Shown: positions 4,603 to 43,844 of the stretch, one piece after another | Layout: every line of letters begins with the position of its first letter | Position numbering within the stretch: position 1 is the first letter of the stretch | From: Leptospirales bacterium | GTDB taxonomy: Bacteria; Spirochaetota; Leptospiria; Turneriellales; JAOUFE01 | Direction of reading: 5' to 3' | Assembly (NCBI GenBank): GCA_040326155.1 | Contig: JBEQLE010000031.1 | Coordinates: 1-43,844 of the forward strand | Length of the DNA: 43,844 bases | The notes under the pieces: model-generated | Seen by the model: only the letters and a program-made list of their open reading frames with translations | What the model was told of the DNA's origin: nothing | Databases searched by the model: none | Position numbers and translations under genes: made by a program

Positions 4603-4761
4603 ATGAATATTTCTTTGGGCTGTAACTATTGTTTTACAGGCGTAGTACAGATACTGCTGGTTAGGCGTATATATATGGTAAGCCTGCGTGGATAGTTTTC
4701 TCTTAATTTTTAAAACCGAGTTATTGGCAATTATCCAATGTCTCCCGGATTCGGGTATTTA

Positions 4762-5325
4762 TTACCAGTAATCGCTGGGTTTGTAGTGGGTGAATTCGAA
4801 GAGCTGGTGTCTTTTGCGGGTGGTGTGGAATCTCACACCATGGTAGATCTTGATACCCAGGCATCGCCAGGCCGTACTGTTGAACCTGCCACGGTAATCC
4901 CTGGAATGTCCAAAAGACGGAAACTTGCTCACTAACTCATCCAAATATAGCGCAAGTGCCAAGCGAACCAGATGAGTCATAGTACAGCCCATTTTTGCAG
5001 CACTAATTCGAATAAATAATTCGTCTTGTCCGTATAGACACAACCTGTGCCTGTGCTTTTTCTGACTATCTACTCGTTCGCCTCGCACCAATTCATTTAG
5101 CCTGGCGATTTTCCTCGAACGCGCTCCCACAATTTCAACACCCCTATGCAACGGCCCACTTCGTTTAATCATTCTAAAAATAGCATACCGAACCACCCAT
5201 GAGCAACTACGGTTTTTACCGATGGCCACCCATTTTATCTTTTTCCAGGTTAAATATGGCAGACGAATTTCTAAAACATTATCAATCGGGATCTTCAGTT
5301 TTCTATACGTACTTTTGTTCTTCAT
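4762..5325 (-). CDS. DUF1564-like putative tandem ribbon-helix-helix DNA-binding protein, copy 1 (187 aa)
   Basis: Start at 5325 (MKNKSTYRKLK) gives the same 564-nt length as the paralogue at 17867-18430. Two strand-helix-helix units: LEIRLP...SWVVRYAI and HRLCLY...MTHLVRLAL. Confidence 0.7.
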   Translation of the reverse strand: MKNKSTYRKLKIPIDNVLEIRLPYLTWKKIKWVAIGKNRSCSWVVRYAIFRMIKRSGPLHRGVEIVGARSRKIARLNELVRGERVDSQKKHRHRLCLYGQDELFIRISAAKMGCTMTHLVRLALALYLDELVSKFPSFGHSRDYRGRFNSTAWRCLGIKIYHGVRFHTTRKRHQLFEFTHYKPSDYW

Positions 5326-5748
5326 ATAGGTGTAATAGGCAATAGTTGGCTTTTTTTTCATCTTAATGCACAAAAAAATCCTGCGGTTACTTTTATTTCG
5401 ACAAAAAATCCTTCGGTTTTTAGCTTTCTTTGTAGATCTGAAGTCTGTGGTTTCACCACAGTTTCTTGCACGCATTATAGACTGCTGAGCTGCAAAAAAA
5501 TATCGTATTGGGTAGCGGAGAATTTTTTTCGGTATCGAAAAAAATCGGAGCGAGGGAAAAGGTTAAAAACCGCCCTGGCTAAGTACCCACTTTTCCCCTG
5601 AAAATTTAATGGAGAAGATACGACGGGTCTATACGTAACGAAAAGAGATCTAAAATTTATATGCTTGACATATTAAAGTTAATTTTTTTATATTGATTTT
5701 GTTTATTGTTAACACATTAGCATATCCATATAGCATCAGGAGTAGAAA

Positions 5749-6306
5749 GTGAAAGAGAATAAAAAAGAAAAAACATCCGTAAAAAAGAAAATCATTAAAG
5801 AAGTAAAGGTCTCTCTTGATTATATGTTACGGACTACCATGCAACATCATATTCAATTGAGTACGATGGCCGATCAGAAAGCAAATATTATGATTGGAGC
5901 TAACGCATTTATATTTTCTATTTTAATCAGTGACCTTGCTCTGGCCGGCCCATATTGGGGTTTTTTCAGTCTCTGCGGAACCTCCATAGCTTCTTTAACT
6001 TTTGCCATACTTGCTGTCATGCCTACTTACATGAACAGTAAAAAACAAGAACGAATGCAGATGGACAAAAATTTACTGTTTTTTGGACATTTTACTCAAT
6101 TATCCTATGAAGATTATCTGGAAGAGTTGGACAAAGTTGTTTACGATGATAGAATGGTTTTTGAGAGTATGGTAAATGACCTTTATCAACTTGGAAAAGT
6201 ATTGAAAAATCGAAAATATAAATATCTGTCTTTAAGCTATAGTTTATTCTTATATGGAATTACACTGAGTATGATTCTCGTCTTTGTTCAATTGTCGATT
6301 CATTAA
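5749..6306 (+). CDS. Pycsar-effector-family (DUF5706) transmembrane protein
   Basis: Family motifs LSTMADQKANIMI, NLLFFGHF and DLYQLGKVL..KYKYL..SY; 3 TM segments. Confidence 0.8.
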   Translation: MKENKKEKTSVKKKIIKEVKVSLDYMLRTTMQHHIQLSTMADQKANIMIGANAFIFSILISDLALAGPYWGFFSLCGTSIASLTFAILAVMPTYMNSKKQERMQMDKNLLFFGHFTQLSYEDYLEELDKVVYDDRMVFESMVNDLYQLGKVLKNRKYKYLSLSYSLFLYGITLSMILVFVQLSIH

Positions 6307-6345: not shown

Positions 6346-7602
6346 TTATTTCCTTTTTTTAGAAGACCCTTCTGGTTTAATGCTCATAAGTTCTTCGTCA
6401 TAGTGAAATGTTTCGCGCAACAAACGATTTATTTCGTCTGGATTTTTGATCTGGTATTCATCAAGCAGGGTTTTTCTAAATTTTGGCAATTTATAGTTTC
6501 GTAGAAACTCCGACGCCGTAGAACAGAACTCTTTTACTTTGAGCGCTTTTTCCTGCCCGATAATAGTATAAAGGCGCGCTGAATCTACCCAGATATCGAC
6601 CATGGGAGCAATTGCATATTGGTATTTTTTCAGTTCCGCAATTCTAGGGTAGGCCGCCAGGGTGGTAATGTTCTCAATTCCTTCTTCATGTAATCTCAAT
6701 ATCTGACTTCGGGAGATTGTTGGTAATTCGACAAGCGATCCTTTTTCCTGGCTTCCTCCCTGCATGGCCTTCATCCCATACTCTTTTAGAATACTCAAAG
6801 CCGTTAGCGGAAAATAACCTACCAGGAACATTGCCATATTCCCTTGTTCCATCTCTACGGATGATAACACCAGCGAGATGCCATAAACAAAAAGTAGTTT
6901 ACCGACAAGAAAACGATAAACACGGGTTCCATACACATCGTCGTAATAAAGTTTACTGATAAAGTAAGATACCAGATTCAAATACCAGCCGACAAACCCG
7001 GCTACAACAAGGGGAATATTGGGGCTTAGAATAAAACCGGGCAGGGTAGTGTTGGTAAAAATATCCTGGGTGTTTATATATTCAGCGAGCGTACTACCGC
7101 CTCGTCCCTCCGGATTTACCGTGTAGAGCCATCCGGTTGTCATTGCAAAGGCTAAGGCAAATTTCATCCACCAACTGCCCCTTATACTGGCAATACGGTC
7201 CTTAAGTGTAATGTCTTTTCTATTATACCGAAATGCTACTTTTATTCCGAGCAGGGCAAAAGGTAAGAGGGTCATAATGCAGATAAAGATCGAATAACGA
7301 AGCCATATACTATGAATTTTTCCGCCTATAACGTCAATTTTTTCTTGAAGATTTCCACTTTGTTTACTTCGCAGGAAATACTCTTTCAACATTTTTTCTT
7401 TGGGGGGAATTTCCGTTTCTGCATCAATTATAATAAATTCATCCTGGTCACGTATTGCTTCACCGTGTTTTTGAATTTCCTGCGCAATATTCACCGTTCT
7501 TTTGTGATATGCAGGGACTGTAATGGCCAGCGCTACAATTGCCGGAGAACAATACCCCAGGAGTATTAAACTTTTCTTTGTGAAGTTCCATATATATTTC
7601 AT
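6346..7602 (-). CDS. Hypothetical multi-pass membrane protein with a C-terminal helix-hairpin-helix-like domain
   Basis: About 6 TM segments (AGFVGWY, FLVGYFP), then SLVELPTISRSQILRLHEEGIENITTLA, an HhH-like pattern. Confidence 0.65.
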   Translation of the reverse strand: MKYIWNFTKKSLILLGYCSPAIVALAITVPAYHKRTVNIAQEIQKHGEAIRDQDEFIIIDAETEIPPKEKMLKEYFLRSKQSGNLQEKIDVIGGKIHSIWLRYSIFICIMTLLPFALLGIKVAFRYNRKDITLKDRIASIRGSWWMKFALAFAMTTGWLYTVNPEGRGGSTLAEYINTQDIFTNTTLPGFILSPNIPLVVAGFVGWYLNLVSYFISKLYYDDVYGTRVYRFLVGKLLFVYGISLVLSSVEMEQGNMAMFLVGYFPLTALSILKEYGMKAMQGGSQEKGSLVELPTISRSQILRLHEEGIENITTLAAYPRIAELKKYQYAIAPMVDIWVDSARLYTIIGQEKALKVKEFCSTASEFLRNYKLPKFRKTLLDEYQIKNPDEINRLLRETFHYDEELMSIKPEGSSKKRK

Positions 7603-7749
7603 AATTTCTACCTGCGAGAGTCCATCATTAAAGAAATGTCTCTTATATAACCTTCAATACACATCATTGTCACTGTCTGTCAATATAAATAATAAAATAA
7701 AATAGATTAATTAATTTTGATGAATTTCAGTATGGTATAATTTTTAAAA

Positions 7750-8023
7750 GGGGTAAGTCTACCCCCTCGCCCAAGCCAAGGTCTCGGGCTACCCCCGACG
7801 TTTTCCAGCTTTACATGGCTTCATGTTTGAAGTTTATCTTTTTATTCAATATTATTATTTAATTTTCCGGCGGTCAGCCGGGGATGTGTCACTTTTCTTT
7901 TCCGCAAAAGAAAAGTAACCAAAAGAAAACGCCCAATCCCGCCACCCTCCTGGCGGGGGGATTGGGTAGATTGAGCCTCCCGGTATTGGTTCTGTTGGTG
8001 TTTTTTCGGGGGCTTCGCGGTTT
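7750..8023 (+). repeat. Dispersed structured element, copy A
   Basis: Shares GGGG..CCCC hairpin, AT-rich spacer, CCGGC-N5-GCCGG hairpin, GTGTCACTTTTCTTTT..AAAAGAAAAGTAACCAAAAGAAAA, CGCCACCCTCC and GAGCCTCCCGGTATTGGTTCTG with copies B and C. Confidence 0.9.
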
Positions 8024-8156
8024 ATTGTGATGTGGATGGGTTTACTGTTAGCTTGCCGATGGCAGAAAGTTTTATGTAGAATTACATTGGTATGAAGCCC
8101 ATGGAATAGGAAAAAAAATGGAAAAAATTAAAAGGTTTTTGTAAATTGTGTGTACT

Positions 8157-8363
8157 ATGAATTATAGAGTATGCGTAAATAATGAAGGTTATGAACCCGA
8201 CCTGCAAAAAGGGAAAAAGTACCTACTCAACCCCAATGCAGAAAATTTACCCGAGGGTTTTATCTCCGTCATCGACGACTCAGGTGAAGATTATATCTAC
8301 GCAGCAGAAAATTTTATTCCCGTCCCAGGCGGCGAAACGAAAGAAGACAGACTAAGAAATTGA
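8157..8363 (+). CDS. Small conserved hypothetical protein (68 aa)
   Basis: VCVNNEGYEPDL..GKKY...VIDDSGEDYIY..ENF resembles a widespread small-protein family often seen near toxin-antitoxin loci (recognised from memory). Confidence 0.7.
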   Translation: MNYRVCVNNEGYEPDLQKGKKYLLNPNAENLPEGFISVIDDSGEDYIYAAENFIPVPGGETKEDRLRN

Positions 8364-8420
8364 ACCACTCCATGAAGCGTTTGGCTTCGAGAACTTCCAT
8401 TATACATTATACAATATACA

Positions 8421-8480
8421 TTTTAAAAGGGGTAAGCCTACCCCCTCACTGCAAACCAAGCACAGCAAACCCTGACCCAA
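8421..8480 (+). repeat. Partial 5' end of the dispersed element (copy D)
   Basis: TTTTAAAAGGGGTAAGCCTACCCCCTC versus TTTTAAAAGGGGTAAGTCTACCCCCTC at 7742; the following CTGCAAAC is shared with copy C. Confidence 0.75.
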
Positions 8481-8557
8481 AACCCGGAAACGACAACCGC
8501 CTCATACCAATCGTAGCCATACTGTTCGGCGCGATCAGCAAAATGAAATAACACGTA

Positions 8558-8760
8558 TTACAATAATGCCTCCGACATATCAGCCTCTTCTTTCAGTTTT
8601 TTCAACCAATTGTAAAGAGTCGGGGTAGCTATTCCAGTGTCTTTTGAAATCTCACTCACTGATCCGCCATCCGGCTTCAACATACGCCTGACGGTTCTTT
8701 TTTTAAATCCTTTATCATACTTCATTTGTCACCTCGTTTTGGGTGACAACTTTTCTGACA
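8558..8760 (-). mobile_element. IS3-family remnant: left inverted repeat plus truncated orfA (55 aa HTH, 8725-8558)
   Basis: Minus strand begins TGTCAGAAAAGTTGTCAC, then GAGG SD, then MKYDKGFKKRTVRRMLKPDGGSVSEISKDTGIATPTLYNWLKK (HTH_Tnp_1 pattern). No DDE orfB follows. Not in the ORF track (under 60 aa). Confidence 0.75.
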
Positions 8761-8790
8761 ATAGGGGTGGCCACCCCGCACCGAATTGAA

Positions 8791-9066
8791 AAAACCGTGA
8801 AACCCCAAAAAAACATCAGCAGAACCAATACCGGGAGGCTCGATGAATTCTGAAAGCCCCGCCATGGAGGGTGGCGCTTTCGGACGTTTTTCTTTTGGTT
8901 ACTTTTCTTTTTGCGGAAAAAGAAAAGTGACACTTCCCCGGCGGTCAGCCGGGCATAGAATATAAATATTGTATAACGAAAGTTTGAAAACGAAGTTTGC
9001 AATATCAGTAAAAAATGCGTAGGGTAAGCCGCAACCGTGTGCGGCGGAGGGGCGCGCTAAGCCCCC
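8791..9066 (-). repeat. Dispersed structured element, copy B (inverted relative to A)
   Basis: Reverse complement aligns with copy A across ~280 bp; begins 1 nt after the stop codon of the hybrid kinase. Confidence 0.9.
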
Positions 9067-9067
9067 A

Positions 9068-11788
9068 TTATTCCTTTTTTTCAACAACAGGCAGCCATTT
9101 TATTAAAGCCTCAAGTAGTTGTTTTTCACTGACTGGTTTGCGTAAATAACCATCGGTGATGCGCCTGATTTTGTCTGCCCTTGCTTTCATGGCCGAGGCG
9201 GTTACCGCCACAATGGGAATCGATTTTAATTGATCATCTTTTTTGATGATGCGGATAGCATCGTAGCCATTCATAATCGGCATTTCAATGTCCATTAGAA
9301 TCAGGTCGGGCGGGTTTTTGCGACACAAATCGATGGCTTTTTTCCCGTTATCTGCTTCTATTAGTTTCAGGCCTCTCTCATATAGGTATTCTTTTAATAG
9401 TTCTCTGTTATTTTTAACGTCATCGACTATTAAGATGTTGGCGGGTTTAAATATGGTTGTTTTAATGTTCTTTATTATCTTTTTTTCCGGGTCAAAACTA
9501 TTTATTATTTTCACATCTTTAATAGTTACAGTAAAATTGCTGCCCCGGTTTACTTTACTGCTTAACTTTATATTTCCGTTCATTAGTTGAGCCAGACGTT
9601 TACTGATGGCAAGCCCCAGCCCCGTGCCTCCGTATTTGGCGTGGCTTTGCCCTATTCGTTGTTCAAAAGGTTTGAAGATGGAATTCTTTAGGTTTTGCGG
9701 TATGCCAATACCGGTATCTTCTACACTAAAAACAAGGTTCAGATATTCGGAACTGTTTTTTTTAAAAGATGCTTTTGCTGAAATTGTGACACTGCCTTTG
9801 TCAGTAAATTTAATTGCGTTGCTGACGAGGTTGAGTAAAACTTGACGAAGGCGGATTTCGTCGAGCAATAACAACTGGGGCAGTTTCGGGTCGATTACAA
9901 TCTGTAATTTAAGTTTTTTTTCATTGGCTGATTGTGCAAATGTCTCTTTTATCTCTTTAATAATAACAGAAGGTTGCGTTGCGGTGTAATGAAGTTCTAT
10001 TTTTCCAGCTTCAACTTTCGATAAATCTAAAATATCATTAATTAAAGCAAGAAGTGTTTTACCACTTGATGCTATGGTGTTTAGATATCGCAAATGTTTT
10101 GCATCATTCGTTTTGCCTGAGAGAATATCGGTAAAACCTAGAATTGTATTCATGGGTGTTCGTATTTCATGGCTCATGTTTGTTAGAAATTCAGTTTTTG
10201 ATTGGTTGGCCTTATCTGCTGAGCGCCGTGCGAGTGCCAACTCTTTTACCTGGTGCTCCAGCTGGGTTTGTAATTCTATTTTAGAGCTAATATCATAAAA
10301 CGCGAACAATACGGAAAACTTACCATCGATAGAAATTATACGCAAGGATAAAAGCGACCAGAAAGCGGAGCCATCTTTCCGTTTTCCCCGCATCTCTAAA
10401 TTAGAAATGTATTTATTTTTTTTCAGCAATTCCAGTAACTTTTTTTGATCTTTCGAGTCAAAATAGAGAATATCTGTTTTTTTGTTTATTATATTCTCCT
10501 TTTGGTATCCAAACTGAGTGGCAAACTCTGAATTGCACAGCTGTATTGTTCGTGTTTTAAGGTCGCTTACTGCCATAGGAATAGGTGCGGTCTGGAAAAT
10601 TTTATTGAAATTTTCTTCGCTGTTATTGAGTTCCTGTTTTGTGCTGTTTATGGTTTCAATATATCGATCTCGGTGTTCAATTAACTCTTTCAGAGAGTTA
10701 TAATTGTGCTCTAACACTTCTCTGGAATGTTTTCGATGTTCGTTTGTTTTAACAATGTACCATATCATTGCAGCCAGTAAAATTCCAATGACTAAAATTA
10801 AAATGTAATGGTGACTGAGCAAAAAACCCAGGTTAGCTTCTATGGCGCTGAGTTTTACAATCGATATATATTTCCAGTTTTTAAAATTGTTTTCTAAAGT
10901 TTTTAACGTATCTGTCGTTTCGACATTTGGAGAAATTGTTACAAAGGAAAAAAGACCATTATCAGTTATAAATTGTCCCTCGTTAGCGCTGTTTATTTTT
11001 TCCCATTCTTTCGCATAACGTTTTTCAAAGTTATATTTTTTTCTATCTTTAATTATTGATCCCCACTCTTCTTGCGGGGAAAATCCTTTTAAATAATACC
11101 CTTCATCATTAATAAGTATATTGTTTCCTATATACGCATTTGATATAATACTGGAGAGAAGCTGTTTCCCATTATAATTGAAAACAAGAATACCCAGAAC
11201 ATTACCTTTTTTACCGGTAACAGGGGTGGCAAAACGCAAAACAGGCTTAAATGGAATTTCGATTTTTTCATTCTCCATATTTAAGTCGAGTTCAGAGACA
11301 AAAATTTTACCAGGTTTCATTTTCAGGGCTTTTTGTACATAATAACGATTTGCTTTTTCTTGCAGCTTATTAAGCCGAACAGAGTAGGGTTTATCTTCGT
11401 TATAATTAACTCTAATAACTTCTTTTCCGGTTTTGTCAATGTATCTAATTTGATCAAAATGAGTTTTTATGGCAGAAAATGTGATTAGATCATTAATTAA
11501 ACTTTTGTACGCCAGTTGATTGTAATCAAGGTCAGCTTTCAGTTCGTGGTGTTTGGAAAGAAAAAGCAGATCAGATTTAATTACATTGAGTGTTGTGTCG
11601 ATTCTGTTTTTTTCGGAATGCTTGAACTGGGAGATCTTGTTTTTTACAAATTTATATTCTTTTGTTTTTAATTGATTATAGGTCGTTGTAATTATAATTA
11701 CTACCAGAATTAATATGGGAAAGTATATTTTTGAAAAATTTATAAAAGTGTTTTGAGTTTGCTCATTAGAATGTAAGTATTTTTCCAT
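9068..11788 (-). CDS. Hybrid sensor histidine kinase (Cache-PAS-HisKA-HATPase-REC)
   Basis: FDQIRYID Cache motif, PAS domain, FLTNMSHEIRTPMN H-box, NLVSNAIKFT, GGTGLGL, C-terminal ILMDIEMP receiver. Confidence 0.95.
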   Translation of the reverse strand: MEKYLHSNEQTQNTFINFSKIYFPILILVVIIITTTYNQLKTKEYKFVKNKISQFKHSEKNRIDTTLNVIKSDLLFLSKHHELKADLDYNQLAYKSLINDLITFSAIKTHFDQIRYIDKTGKEVIRVNYNEDKPYSVRLNKLQEKANRYYVQKALKMKPGKIFVSELDLNMENEKIEIPFKPVLRFATPVTGKKGNVLGILVFNYNGKQLLSSIISNAYIGNNILINDEGYYLKGFSPQEEWGSIIKDRKKYNFEKRYAKEWEKINSANEGQFITDNGLFSFVTISPNVETTDTLKTLENNFKNWKYISIVKLSAIEANLGFLLSHHYILILVIGILLAAMIWYIVKTNEHRKHSREVLEHNYNSLKELIEHRDRYIETINSTKQELNNSEENFNKIFQTAPIPMAVSDLKTRTIQLCNSEFATQFGYQKENIINKKTDILYFDSKDQKKLLELLKKNKYISNLEMRGKRKDGSAFWSLLSLRIISIDGKFSVLFAFYDISSKIELQTQLEHQVKELALARRSADKANQSKTEFLTNMSHEIRTPMNTILGFTDILSGKTNDAKHLRYLNTIASSGKTLLALINDILDLSKVEAGKIELHYTATQPSVIIKEIKETFAQSANEKKLKLQIVIDPKLPQLLLLDEIRLRQVLLNLVSNAIKFTDKGSVTISAKASFKKNSSEYLNLVFSVEDTGIGIPQNLKNSIFKPFEQRIGQSHAKYGGTGLGLAISKRLAQLMNGNIKLSSKVNRGSNFTVTIKDVKIINSFDPEKKIIKNIKTTIFKPANILIVDDVKNNRELLKEYLYERGLKLIEADNGKKAIDLCRKNPPDLILMDIEMPIMNGYDAIRIIKKDDQLKSIPIVAVTASAMKARADKIRRITDGYLRKPVSEKQLLEALIKWLPVVEKKE

Positions 11789-17480: not shown

Positions 17481-17866
17481 AAATACGTTATCAAAACTCG
17501 GCTACAGATTTACAAGAATAATATTGGTATAATATTAAATAAGAATTCGCCGGGAACGGCGGGCTTCGGTCCCCCCGCGTTGATGATAGCAGGAAATTTT
17601 CCCCGCGAAGGTTGCCGAATAAGTATTGGGTATTCGCTGTTTTGTTCGTTCGTTCCAAGGTTAAACTCTGGGCCCTCCCTCCGGTCGGTCTCGGCGATTC
17701 AAAACCGGGTCGAAATTTATTGGGGTTCCTGCGCCAGGGGGTGAATGTGGTCTTTATTTTTAGAGTACAAAAAAGCCAAAGGATTTATTTACGCAAATAA
17801 AGGTGGTAAAAACCACAAAAACTGTGTAATCTGAAAAAATTTCCAATTTTTGCCTATTACACTTAT

Positions 17867-18430
17867 ATGAAGAATATAACTACGTATCGAAAATTAAAAA
17901 TACCAATTGATAATGTTTTAGAAATTCGGCTGCCTCCTTTGTCTTGGAATAAAATAAAATGGGTGGCAATCTGTACATTCAGATCCCATTCTTGGGTTGT
18001 CCGATACGCTGTTTTTCGGATGATTAAACGAAGCGGGCAGTTTAATCCAGATGACGAAAATGCTGGGTTGCGCTCTGCTAAAATTGCAAAGCTAAATGAC
18101 CTTGTGCGAGGCGAAAGGGCCAATAGTCAGAAGAAGCATAGACATCGACTTTGTCTGTACGGTAAGGATGAGCTATTTATTCGAATTGCCGCTGCCAAAA
18201 TGGGATGCACGATGAGTCATCTGGTTCGTTTGGCGCTGGCGATGTATCTGGATGATTTGGTTAAAAAGTTTCCCTCGATTGGCCGCTCTCGGGGCCGTAA
18301 TGGCAGGTTCAGTGGTCCGGCGTGGAAATGCCTGGGGATCAAGATTTACCGTGGTGTGAGATTCCACACCACGGGCATAAGACACCAACAGTTCGAGTTC
18401 ATCTACTACAAACCCGGCGATTACTGGTAA
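17867..18430 (+). CDS. DUF1564-like putative tandem RHH protein, copy 2 (187 aa)
   Basis: Near-colinear paralogue of 4762-5325 (YRKLKIPIDNVLEIRLP, SQKKHRHRLCLYG, YKP.DYW). Confidence 0.75.
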   Translation: MKNITTYRKLKIPIDNVLEIRLPPLSWNKIKWVAICTFRSHSWVVRYAVFRMIKRSGQFNPDDENAGLRSAKIAKLNDLVRGERANSQKKHRHRLCLYGKDELFIRIAAAKMGCTMSHLVRLALAMYLDDLVKKFPSIGRSRGRNGRFSGPAWKCLGIKIYRGVRFHTTGIRHQQFEFIYYKPGDYW

Positions 18431-18931
18431 TACCCGGGCCGTTCTGGAAAATTCCGGGCTATTTACCCACACCACAACGCCCAGACATATATACCTGCAC
18501 CCCCTCAAAATTCTTACACAACAATTGTATTCAATATGTCTGAAAACCTATACTCGTCAAAAGATATGAATTGGCAGGATATTTTATTGCTGGCTTTGTT
18601 GGCGCTGGGTTTATACATTATAACAGAAATTCAAAAAAAACATAATACATTTAGGCCACAAGAAAATCCTGCGGTTTTTTTATGCTGCTACATTCGATTC
18701 TCGTTTAAAGTTTATTTCGAAAAAAAACGTCGTTTTTTTCGATTGCTTCGTGGTATTTTTTTAGTCCACAAAAAAAATCTGTTGTTGCTCTTGTTTTAAG
18801 TGGAATACCACTTCCCTATGTAAGAAATCGGTATCAATGCCGCCGATGTCTTCATAAATACGATTGGCCCGAGCGTAGCTAGCTATTGGTGGTTTTTTCC
18901 CCACCAGGAATTCCCCAAATTTGCTTATGGT

Positions 18932-20915: not shown

Positions 20916-21434
20916 TTATTGAAATCCATTTTCTTCAAATTCAACGAAAGGATTAGAATCTTTACAATCAATTTCAGAAAAATACCCGGGTTCCCAAAGG
21001 TAGCACTTGTCGTTTATTTCGGACACGAAAGAATGTCTAAAACCATGCCCCGGGCCATCGATATCGAGGTGATAAGAGGCAATAAGTTTAAAACCAAAAA
21101 CTTCTTTGAGCTTTGCACGGGAATAAGATTCAGGATTACGAATAAAAAATAACCAGTAACACGATGCCTCAAACCATTGGTTTGATGGTCCCAAACTGCA
21201 TTCACGAAAAAACAGTTCTCGAACGTATTCTACTTGTTTTTGCTGTTTCTTACTTTTCTGAATTTTATTCCATAGTTTTTTATAAATTGCATTTGCTTGC
21301 TTATAGCAGGAATTTTTATAGGAATTGGTTTGGCATTGTTTTTGGCTATTATTTTGAATTGCATTGGTAGAATTGCAGCTCGTGAAAAGAAGCAAATAAA
21401 ATATAATGAATAGTTTTGACGTGGTTACTGTCAC
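20916..21434 (-). CDS. Hypothetical Cys-rich lipoprotein
   Basis: Lipobox YLLLFTS-C; GTGA overlap with the cbiA stop codon. Confidence 0.6.
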   Translation of the reverse strand: MTVTTSKLFIIFYLLLFTSCNSTNAIQNNSQKQCQTNSYKNSCYKQANAIYKKLWNKIQKSKKQQKQVEYVRELFFRECSLGPSNQWFEASCYWLFFIRNPESYSRAKLKEVFGFKLIASYHLDIDGPGHGFRHSFVSEINDKCYLWEPGYFSEIDCKDSNPFVEFEENGFQ

Positions 21435-32825: not shown

Positions 32826-32982
32826 GACTTCTCCCTCGAAAAACGTTGAACTAGTATTCCGGCTCAGGGCTAAAGCCTACTCACCAGCCTTCCCATCTTT
32901 CGACAGTGGCATTTCAGGTTTTCGTTCCCATTACGGCTGCGGGGCAGCGGAGGATTTTCACCTCACTTCCGATAGTTCAGCT
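32826..32982 (-). promoter_or_regulatory. Cobalamin riboswitch
   Basis: Minus strand GGAAGTGAGGTGAAAATCCTCCGCTGCCCCGCAGCCGTAA...GCCACTG...GGGAAGG...GAGCCGGAATACT; P1 TGAACTA/TAGTTCA; downstream TTCGAGGGAGAAG kissing-loop partner. Confidence 0.92.
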
Positions 32983-33241
32983 CACTAAAGTTTAACACTT
33001 ACAGCTCACTTTAAGGTAAGAATATAGAGATTAAACTCACCGTCAATTCGTATTCTTATGGAATTTTTCTTCGCATGGTCGGTAATTCCCCACCGGGAAA
33101 TCCACACTTTTGGGCACTAATACGACCGGTGTTGCTTCTGAGTATAATAGCGTAAAGTGGATACTCGCAATATCACCATCTGTATGAAACTGCTGTTTCG
33201 TATAATTATAGAATTATTACGTGTTACCAATCAACTCTGAT

Positions 33242-43635: not shown

Positions 43636-43844
43636 AGGGGGAAAAGTCCCCCTGACTGCAAACGCTGTGCGTTTTCCGTCACCCCCAATATTTTTTAGTG
43701 AATTTGCAAACTACGTTTGAAGTTTTTCTTTATACAATATTTATATTTTATGGTCGGCTGACCGCCGGAGAGGTGTCACTTTTCTTTTTCCACAAAAAGA
43801 AAAGTAACCAAAAGAAAAACGTCCCATCCCGCCGCCGTCCTGGC
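43636..43844 (+). repeat. Dispersed structured element, copy C (cut by the window end)
   Basis: Starts 5 nt after the protease stop codon. TTGCAAACT.CGTTT, TTATACAATATTTATATT, CGGCTGACCGCCGG and the GTGTCACTTTTC...AAAAGAAAAAC core match copy B. Confidence 0.9.

Follow-up and report, generated by a model that had tools for sequence, protein, structure and literature searches.

The DNA analysed here, hereafter the window, is the whole of a 43,844-nt contig (C96; JBEQLE010000031.1) from a Leptospirales bacterium, whose 4.26-Mb assembly (GCA_040326155.1) comprises 171 contigs and is 94.7% complete. The window carries three copies (A, B and C) of a dispersed element of ~280 bp, which an initial annotation had described as a repeat conserved in structure rather than in sequence. 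Our analysis indicates that these copies are probably structured non-coding elements related to the TwoAYGGAY RNAs (RF01731), used in single-stranded form, probably as RNA, and read from the strand opposite to the one followed in the initial annotation (the annotated strand). A single-strand fold is under selection in this element, and its purine/pyrimidine core is homologous across phyla.

In the proposed sense, copy A lies on the minus strand (7750-8024, with its 5' end near 8024 and its 3' end near 7750), copy B on the plus strand (8791-9066) and copy C, truncated by the contig end, on the minus strand (43636-43844); they score 278, 284 and 215 bits, respectively, with nhmmer. The predicted order of parts, given below with the coordinates of A on the minus and those of B on the plus strand, is a 22-nt block, a basal stem carrying a GGA-loop hairpin, an invariant core, a terminal GC hairpin and a 3' module resembling repetitive extragenic palindromic (REP) sequences. 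The 22-nt block, CAGAACCAAUACCGGGAGGCUC, is identical in A (7973-7994) and B (8820-8841) and is conserved in sequence without covariation; a variable segment of ~15 nt separates it from CTGGCTGCGCG. The basal stem is CCCAAUCC/GGAUUGGG in A (7932-7966), with compensatory changes at four pairs, and GAAAGC/GCUUUC in B (8852-8881), and it encloses a hairpin with the loop GGAGGG (CCAGGAGGGUGG) in A and UGGAGGG in B. As DNA in the annotated sense, this stem reads CCCAATCC/GGATTGGG in A versus GAAAGC/GCTTTC in B, both around CGCCACCCTCC..TGGCG. The GGA-containing loop (AGGAGG in A; AUGGAG in B, which is AYGGAY but for one letter) resembles a binding site for CsrA.

The whole core occupies 7888-7929 in A and 8887-8931 in B. 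It consists of a U-rich tract, referred to below as the third tract (UUUUCUUUU in A, 7921-7929; 8887-8896 in B), and a hairpin (A 7888-7919, B 8898-8931), which in A combines an outer stem, GUUAC/GUGAC with one U.G pair, with the helix UUUUCUUUU/AAAAGAAAA and the loop GCGG. Seen in the annotated sense, the core is a hairpin closed by GTCAC/GTAAC, followed by four to five bases and a second purine tract. On the 3' side of the core lies the terminal hairpin CCGGC-N5-GCCGG (A 7867-7881, B 8937-8953) and then the REP-like module (A 7750-7866), made up of an AT-rich spacer, hairpin 2 (A 7769-7789, B 9028-9045) and hairpin 1 (A 7750-7765, B 9049-9065, C 43638-43653).

RNAalifold, applied to seven of the eight near-full-length copies in the genome, returned exactly the basal, core, terminal, hairpin 2 and hairpin 1 stems. 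The modules named in the initial annotation (hairpins 1 and 2, the CGGC-N5-GCCG hairpin, the core, the stem that differs between A and B, and the 22-nt identity) are all where it had placed them. The compensatory changes that it had reported are real, if limited: 11 of 50 pairs are changed on both sides, mainly in the basal stem and hairpin 2. Its statement that structure and not sequence is conserved went too far, as the copies are 80-85% identical (B and C 85% over 156 nt, A and B 80% over 190 nt, A and C 83% over 133 nt) and the core is nearly invariant, its hairpin forming 14 pairs in all seven aligned copies.

The core extends far beyond this genome. A search with the exact 26-letter core pattern in one genome per species matched at least 124 stretches in many phyla and yielded 80 loci. 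Hosts among the matches listed include Paraburkholderia, Xanthomonas, Stenotrophomonas, Aeromonas, Stutzerimonas, Polaromonas, Clostridia, Selenomonadales and candidate-phyla radiation bacteria. In these cross-phylum loci the hairpin loop is complementary, in the proposed sense, to the bases just 5' of the U-rich tract, and the pseudoknot that results covaries. A pseudoknot helix of at least 4 bp is available in 47 of 74 distinct instances versus 14.4% of non-cognate pairings, and none of 2000 permutations reached the observed mean. When equal-length cross-phylum rows on the strand opposite to the annotated one, none of them from this genome or its class, were aligned (33 rows), 96.3% of cells paired, compared with 79.5 ± 1.1% after shuffling (reached in 0 of 500) and 49-59% when the rows were slid; both sides change in all five pseudoknot pairs and in four outer-stem pairs. 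In two Paraburkholderia loci (L114, L118), RF02421, the Burkholderia small RNA (sRNA) Bp1_Cand684_SIPHT, matches directly 3' of the core on the proposed strand with 44.8-52.2 bits (cut-off 44), so this catalogued sRNA candidate may be the tail of an element.

A covariance model of 56 positions, R1, was built from the 33 cross-phylum rows and recovers all three window copies: A at 7885-7938 on the minus strand (52.7 bits, E 4.9e-12), B at 8879-8934 on the plus strand (56.4 bits, E 5.6e-13) and C at 43772-43827 on the minus strand (57.8 bits, E 2.4e-13). All 56 positions are spanned on these strands, while the annotated strand yields 23-27 bits, from the hairpin alone. Wobble pairs point the same way. 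One outer-stem pair of the 33 rows is U-A in 17 and U.G in 11, and the other strand would have A.C in its place; the outer-stem pair that is C.A in the annotated sense is U.G in the opposite sense in seven of seven genome copies; and conserved A.C juxtapositions at the junction of stem and tract in relatives from the class become G.U on the opposite strand. The R1 scores and the U.G pairs therefore favour the strand opposite to the one that the initial annotation had followed, and this is most likely the functional strand. The element is probably transcribed from it.

Within the class, variation of the tracts themselves bears on the fold. BLAST against 40 related genomes showed that only the core is shared beyond the genus. 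A loose three-tract pattern detected multiple cores per genome in 13 of the 34 genomes examined from the order, and also in further families of the class; positive genomes gave 5-13 matches versus 0-1 per genome for reversed-pattern controls. Isolated matches to this pattern in two of the large genera fall within coding sequence and were discarded as chance. The outer stem covaries freely (GTTAC/GTAAC, CCCAC/GTGGG, CTTAC/GTAAG, GCAACCCA/CGGGTTGC and others), and the length of the tracts (7 to 17 nt) and the positions of G within them vary. The three tracts covary in mirror fashion: in the annotated sense, the second purine tract is a mirror of the first and not a repeat of it, the mirror giving the better match in 36 of 61 asymmetric distinct instances, the direct repeat in 5, with 20 ties. 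In this genome, again in the annotated sense, a hairpin arm A5-G-A4 goes with a third tract A4-G-A5, and A4-G-A4 with A4-G-A4; the copies at 17736-17973 of contig C140 and at 39877 of C98 are exceptions. Expressed as RNA, the purine arm A5-G-A4 of copy B is matched by a third strand U5-C-U4 in parallel register (mirror 10 of 11, direct 9 of 11). In two lineages (L016; L056-L058) the two hairpin arms disagree, and there the third tract goes with whichever arm consists of purines when read as the proposed RNA. An alternative-hairpin switch, in which the third tract would compete for the pyrimidine arm, was also considered. Such a switch requires a direct repeat and a code of base triples requires a mirror, so the asymmetric tracts, mirrored and not repeated, exclude it.

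These data lead us to propose a model for the core. The U-rich tract would be followed, after a short linker, by the hairpin in which UUUUCUUUU pairs with AAAAGAAAA inside the GUUAC/GUGAC clamp, and the hairpin loop would pair with the bases 5' of the tract, as it does in the relatives, to give an H-type pseudoknot with the U-rich tract as loop 1. In pseudoknots of this type, telomerase RNA among them, loop 1 passes through the major groove of stem 2 and forms Hoogsteen triples there (U.A-U and C+.G-C), in parallel with the purine strand. The tract would accordingly lie as a Hoogsteen strand in the major groove of the U-A stem and form approximately nine U.A-U and C+.G-C triples. On the annotated strand, the third tract would instead be loop 3, in the minor groove, and its letter-for-letter mirror relation would have no explanation. 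From the tract variants we consider it somewhat better than an even chance that the triple helix forms. A role of the helix in stabilizing or rigidifying the 3' part of the RNA is a tentative suggestion, as is binding of the GGA loop to the CsrA that the genome encodes (contig C100, 3730-3888; 88 bits).

The link to TwoAYGGAY comes from loci in other phyla. Rfam models were run on 20 of the 80 cross-phylum loci, and RF01731 (gathering cut-off 43 bits) matched beside the core in three of them, above the cut-off in L107 with 61.5 bits and just below it with 42.8 in L109 and 40.5 in L165, in each case on the strand opposite to the annotated one and with the core module 3' of the match. On the proposed strand, a hairpin with an AYGGAY loop precedes the core on its 5' side in 14 of 74 loci from other phyla and 17 of 62 from the class, compared with 0-4 in three controls. 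Weinberg et al. 2010 (PMC2864571) list TwoAYGGAY, from gut metagenomes, gamma-Proteobacteria and Clostridiales, as probably an RNA and not as cis-regulatory, and its loops were later proposed as CsrA sites (Gardner and Eldai 2015, PMC4333381). A 2026 preprint (10.64898/2026.09.22.753630) describes, in its available parts, a multi-copy family in Pseudomonadota with a 3' pseudoknot, a median of 11-23 copies per genome and an excess of divergent doublets at a median distance of 249 bp, together with short 5' repeats, REP arrays at a fixed 3' position and a 'mobile-element-like' expansion; the extended form is there largely confined to Pseudomonadota. Judging by its position, the 3' pseudoknot of the preprint would be the core module found here. 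A supposed link between the 'drum' motif and TwoAYGGAY found no support in the consulted parts of PMC5737381.

A search of the genome with an nhmmer profile made from copies A, B and C (E<=1e-3) found 37 pieces of the element on 28 contigs, with E-values down to 1e-84. Eight of the pieces are almost complete, and 16 are no more than 150 nt away from a contig end, which shows that the repeat breaks the assembly. Fifteen matches carry hairpins 1 and 2 and the AT-rich spacer without the core, nine of them away from contig ends; since this module occurs without the core, the element is composite. R1 finds 17 strong core matches, the maximum among 151 sampled genomes of the class, 11 of which contain the core; the others have 0-9 copies. 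The initial annotation was right to see here a non-coding element that is dispersed in many copies and whose single-strand fold is selected, and we consider it likely that the copies spread by a mobile-element-like process acting in trans. The partial copy that it had placed at 8430 is a related piece, though a small one: hairpin 1 and 14 nt of the flank of copy A, at 8415-8447 (strand not assigned; 91% identical to 7736-7768 over 33 nt).

Some copies deviate locally. In four of them, on contigs C109 (~5185-5227) and C123 (51-93) and at the ends of C116 and C92, the third tract stops after CAAAAG and is followed by a block of ~100 nt that starts with GCCTGGTTT(T/C)CGTTCG and in the C123 copy ends near a second CCAAAAA; R1 matches only positions 14-56 in these four. 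The block may be a second small inserted element, or the copies may form a sub-family. Beside one copy on C98 (~21300-21400, L211) there is a tandem duplication of the 22-nt block, a variable stretch of ~15 nt and a CGCG-rich end. In another genome (G091, contig C2, 300-326 kb; L051/L052), seven core motifs in the same orientation lie ~3-6 kb apart within 26 kb, and several stand tens of bases upstream of the starts of open reading frames (ORFs) on the proposed RNA strand, unlike the dispersed copies here.

In the proposed RNA sense, A and B form a back-to-back, divergent pair, the only such doublet seen in the genome, with their RNA 5' ends 767 bp apart. The interval holds, besides the solo hairpin 1, a 71-amino-acid orphan ORF without a Pfam match (8148-8363, plus strand) and a 55-amino-acid relic of the N-terminus of an IS3-type transposase (HTH_Tnp_1; 8558-8725, minus strand; 31.7 bits, cut-off 24.1), which is not followed by a catalytic domain. 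ORFs flanking the window copies encode a sensor kinase, an LTD-domain protein and unknowns; hairpin 1 of B abuts the stop codon of the convergent sensor-kinase gene. B and C begin, in the annotated sense, 2 and 6 nt after stop codons, as the initial annotation had noticed. Around the element instances the orientation of neighbouring genes is mixed, and a cis-regulatory reading was dropped for this reason. The remark of the initial annotation that no cognate transposase lies nearby also stands: no Y1_Tnp/RAYT gene (PF01797) was matched in the 94.7%-complete assembly, by a search that was positive in 6 of 14 known genomes used as control, and none of the three contigs with an IS110 gene (C161, C100 and C104) carries the element. 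No recombinase, nuclease or reverse transcriptase gene adjoins the window copies, in annotations that included no search aimed at reverse transcriptase or TnpB families. Two further ideas about single parts were set aside: a guide-like role of the ~15-nt variable segment is unsupported, with no nuclease or recombinase nearby and no target search made, and the 22-nt block as a sigma-54 or extracytoplasmic function (ECF) sigma factor promoter lacks a consistent -10 on inspection by eye.

Several observations weigh against reading the copies as TwoAYGGAY-related RNAs on the opposite strand. The pseudoknot stem of the window copies is only 2-3 bp long, and by eye it reaches 4 bp in 0 of 12 instances in the genome. 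The nine tract pairs are invariant in the 33 rows through the way the rows were collected, so support for the triple helix comes from the class-level variants alone. The AYGGAY loop occurs in none of nine genome copies (the loop is CCAGGAGGG in A and CAUGGAGGG in B), and RF01731 has no match in the genome, its best score being 19.2 bits (E 5.6) at an unrelated place, nor does it match between 7600 and 9200 at E<=10, or any of 14 loci from relatives in the class at E<=1; Rfam as a whole gave nothing relevant in 20 and then 14 such loci. The free-energy gap between the strands is small (mean 1.7 kcal/mol), the proposed sense being lower in 44 and higher in 27 of 72 cases, and the wobbles counted over all stems, 18 versus 7, do not represent independent events. 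The proposed sense showed neither a conserved promoter nor an intrinsic terminator, and the sigma-70-like matches and most terminator-like sites, given below, point in the annotated direction. Among public sequencing runs, none of RNA was listed for 7600-9200. Finally, single-stranded DNA also accommodates G.T wobbles and T.A-T triples; the strand asymmetry therefore attests a single-strand fold and is not proof of RNA.

This last point bears directly on a DNA-level mobile element resembling REP/REPIN sequences or miniature inverted-repeat transposable elements (MITEs), in which single-stranded hairpins and an H-DNA-type triplex would be acted on at replication by an HUH enzyme or other recombinase supplied in trans, with no functional RNA. 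Homopurine mirror repeats are the classical H-DNA motif, and the sharp differences in copy number within the class, the contig breaks, the mixed orientation of neighbouring genes and the lack of a conserved promoter or terminator would all fit, as would the REP arrays and expansion that the preprint describes (10.64898/2026.09.22.753630, in part). Against this stand the missing RAYT gene, an alignment of the ends of 12 copies in which no terminal inverted repeats or target duplications are visible (judged by eye, with no dedicated search), the hairpins beside the core, which carry the loops of a curated RNA family and in some phyla match its model, and the geometry of pseudoknot and major-groove strand, which is that of known RNA folds. 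We consider such an element unlikely. A different possibility keeps the annotated direction and makes the copies an sRNA or cis element, with hairpins 1 and 2 and a T-run ending the upstream gene, an internal promoter and CCUCC (anti-Shine-Dalgarno-like) loops. The starts of B and C just past stop codons, here of co-oriented genes, suit it, but across instances the element, at its 5' end in this direction, borders on the start of a gene roughly as frequently as on the end of one. Sigma-70-like matches within A and B are confined to 7827-7855 (plus) and 8988-8959 (minus), just upstream of the CGGC hairpin; both point in the annotated direction, in a region that has 6 such sites versus 2.6 ± 1.6 in shuffles; terminator-like sites are also commoner in that direction (20 of 67 instances versus 6 of 67), and some stems have their G.U there, for example the loop-closing pair of the CGCCG...TGGCG hairpin. 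The recurrent A.C pairs set out above (7 of 7 genome copies, 11 of 33 rows), an R1 score lower by ~30 bits, the opposite Rfam orientation of neighbouring TwoAYGGAY hairpins and the unexplained mirror relation nevertheless make this direction distinctly improbable. That A/T-rich hairpins of low complexity recur by chance or through assembly, without common descent, deserves next to no credence: the tracts are indeed of low complexity, and the single matches in coding regions of other genera are chance, but the genome-wide E-values, the reversed-pattern controls and the covariation of the flanking stems refute it.

Reading the copies as TwoAYGGAY-related RNAs has consequences that reach beyond the window, for which the outcome is mainly that an 'unknown repeat' is filed under a known family. 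TwoAYGGAY elements rank with the most numerous structured non-coding elements of bacteria that still lack an explanation, and the variant described here extends the family to a spirochaete-type lineage that the Rfam model misses, one that dispenses with the AYGGAY loops yet retains the core with hardly a letter changed. We see an even chance that the true invariant of TwoAYGGAY-type elements is a 3' H-type pseudoknot with a long U.A-U/C+.G-C triple helix and not the namesake loops. If so, bacteria of many phyla would share in this core an equivalent of the telomerase and MALAT1/ENE helices, and the helix would offer a testable handle on the role of the element, whether in stability, as a scaffold or as a copying signal. 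Proof would call for three-way covariation, which the naturally differing tract lengths in the class would provide; relatives there vary the three tracts in step, and evidence of this kind can establish a long triple helix of RNA or of single-stranded DNA. The literature searched, which included the available main text of the preprint (10.64898/2026.09.22.753630), gave no description of a triple helix for the TwoAYGGAY family, and none is mentioned in the consulted passages of PMC13541005, a 2026 review on RNA triple helices.

The remainder of the window holds features outside the element. Rfam, at gathering thresholds and at E<=10, reports in the window only a cobalamin riboswitch (32832-33010, minus strand, 70.7 bits) and nothing for the element. 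A 185-amino-acid ORF (5749-6303, plus strand) matches PycTM, a Pycsar effector domain, with 85 bits (cut-off 27.2), and may be part of an anti-phage cyclic-nucleotide system. At 4760-5365 and 17827-18432, three adjoining inverted-repeat arms of 132-304 nt, 73-85% complementary, cover the ORFs at 4762-5475 (minus) and 17867-18430 (plus); these resemble a pair of paralogous genes that have diverged and lie inverted at a distance of 12.5 kb.

The proposed core has parallels in well-studied RNAs. Telomerase RNA and the SAM-II and preQ1-II riboswitches contain pseudoknots with major-groove U.A-U triple helices, and they share with the proposed core the H-type fold and the parallel course of a U-rich loop 1 along the purine strand of stem 2. 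In contrast to these RNAs, 9 consecutive triples in the window and up to ~17 in relatives would be possible, with C+.G-C interruptions; the likeness is one of mechanism and not of descent. In the triple helices of ENE and MALAT1 3' ends, two U-rich strands clamp an A-rich strand, with a C+.G-C interruption and a stabilizing role. The core would have the same strand composition and interruption, and a stabilizing role is proposed for it too, but its A-rich strand is internal, not a 3' tail, and a hairpin and further modules follow. CsrA sponges of the CsrB, RsmY and RsmZ type resemble the element in presenting GGA in hairpin loops; CsrA is encoded in this genome, and many copies could act additively. 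Each copy, however, offers one or two GGA sites, as opposed to many, and binding is putative. REP and REPIN elements, which Bertels and Rainey reportedly described in 2011 together with RAYT transposases, are, like hairpins 1 and 2, short GC-rich palindromes that are dispersed and also occur solo, and differ in that no RAYT gene accompanies the element here; to our knowledge, the conserved loops AAGUC and ACGGU of the element are not known REP signatures.

The closest comparison is with the extended form of TwoAYGGAY itself. Differences lie in the 5' hairpins, of which there is one here as opposed to two, with the loop AGGAGG or AUGGAG in place of AYGGAY, in the pseudoknot stem of 2-3 bp, and in the A-B distance of 767 bp versus a median of 249 bp. 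Shared are a multi-copy, intergenic distribution independent of gene orientation, a basal stem with one or more GGA-loop hairpins, a 3' pseudoknot core that includes the GUUAC/GUGAC clamp, a terminal 3' hairpin, downstream REP-like repeats, the divergent doublet and a copy number of 17 cores. The initial annotation had named a match to a described family as grounds against its own reading, and in substance the repeat has one, its core being the 3' module of TwoAYGGAY type, although RF01731 itself gives no score. With that missing score, a single altered loop and a short pseudoknot, we file the window element not as a member of RF01731 but as a spirochaete-type variant of the known, widespread TwoAYGGAY-type multi-copy family.

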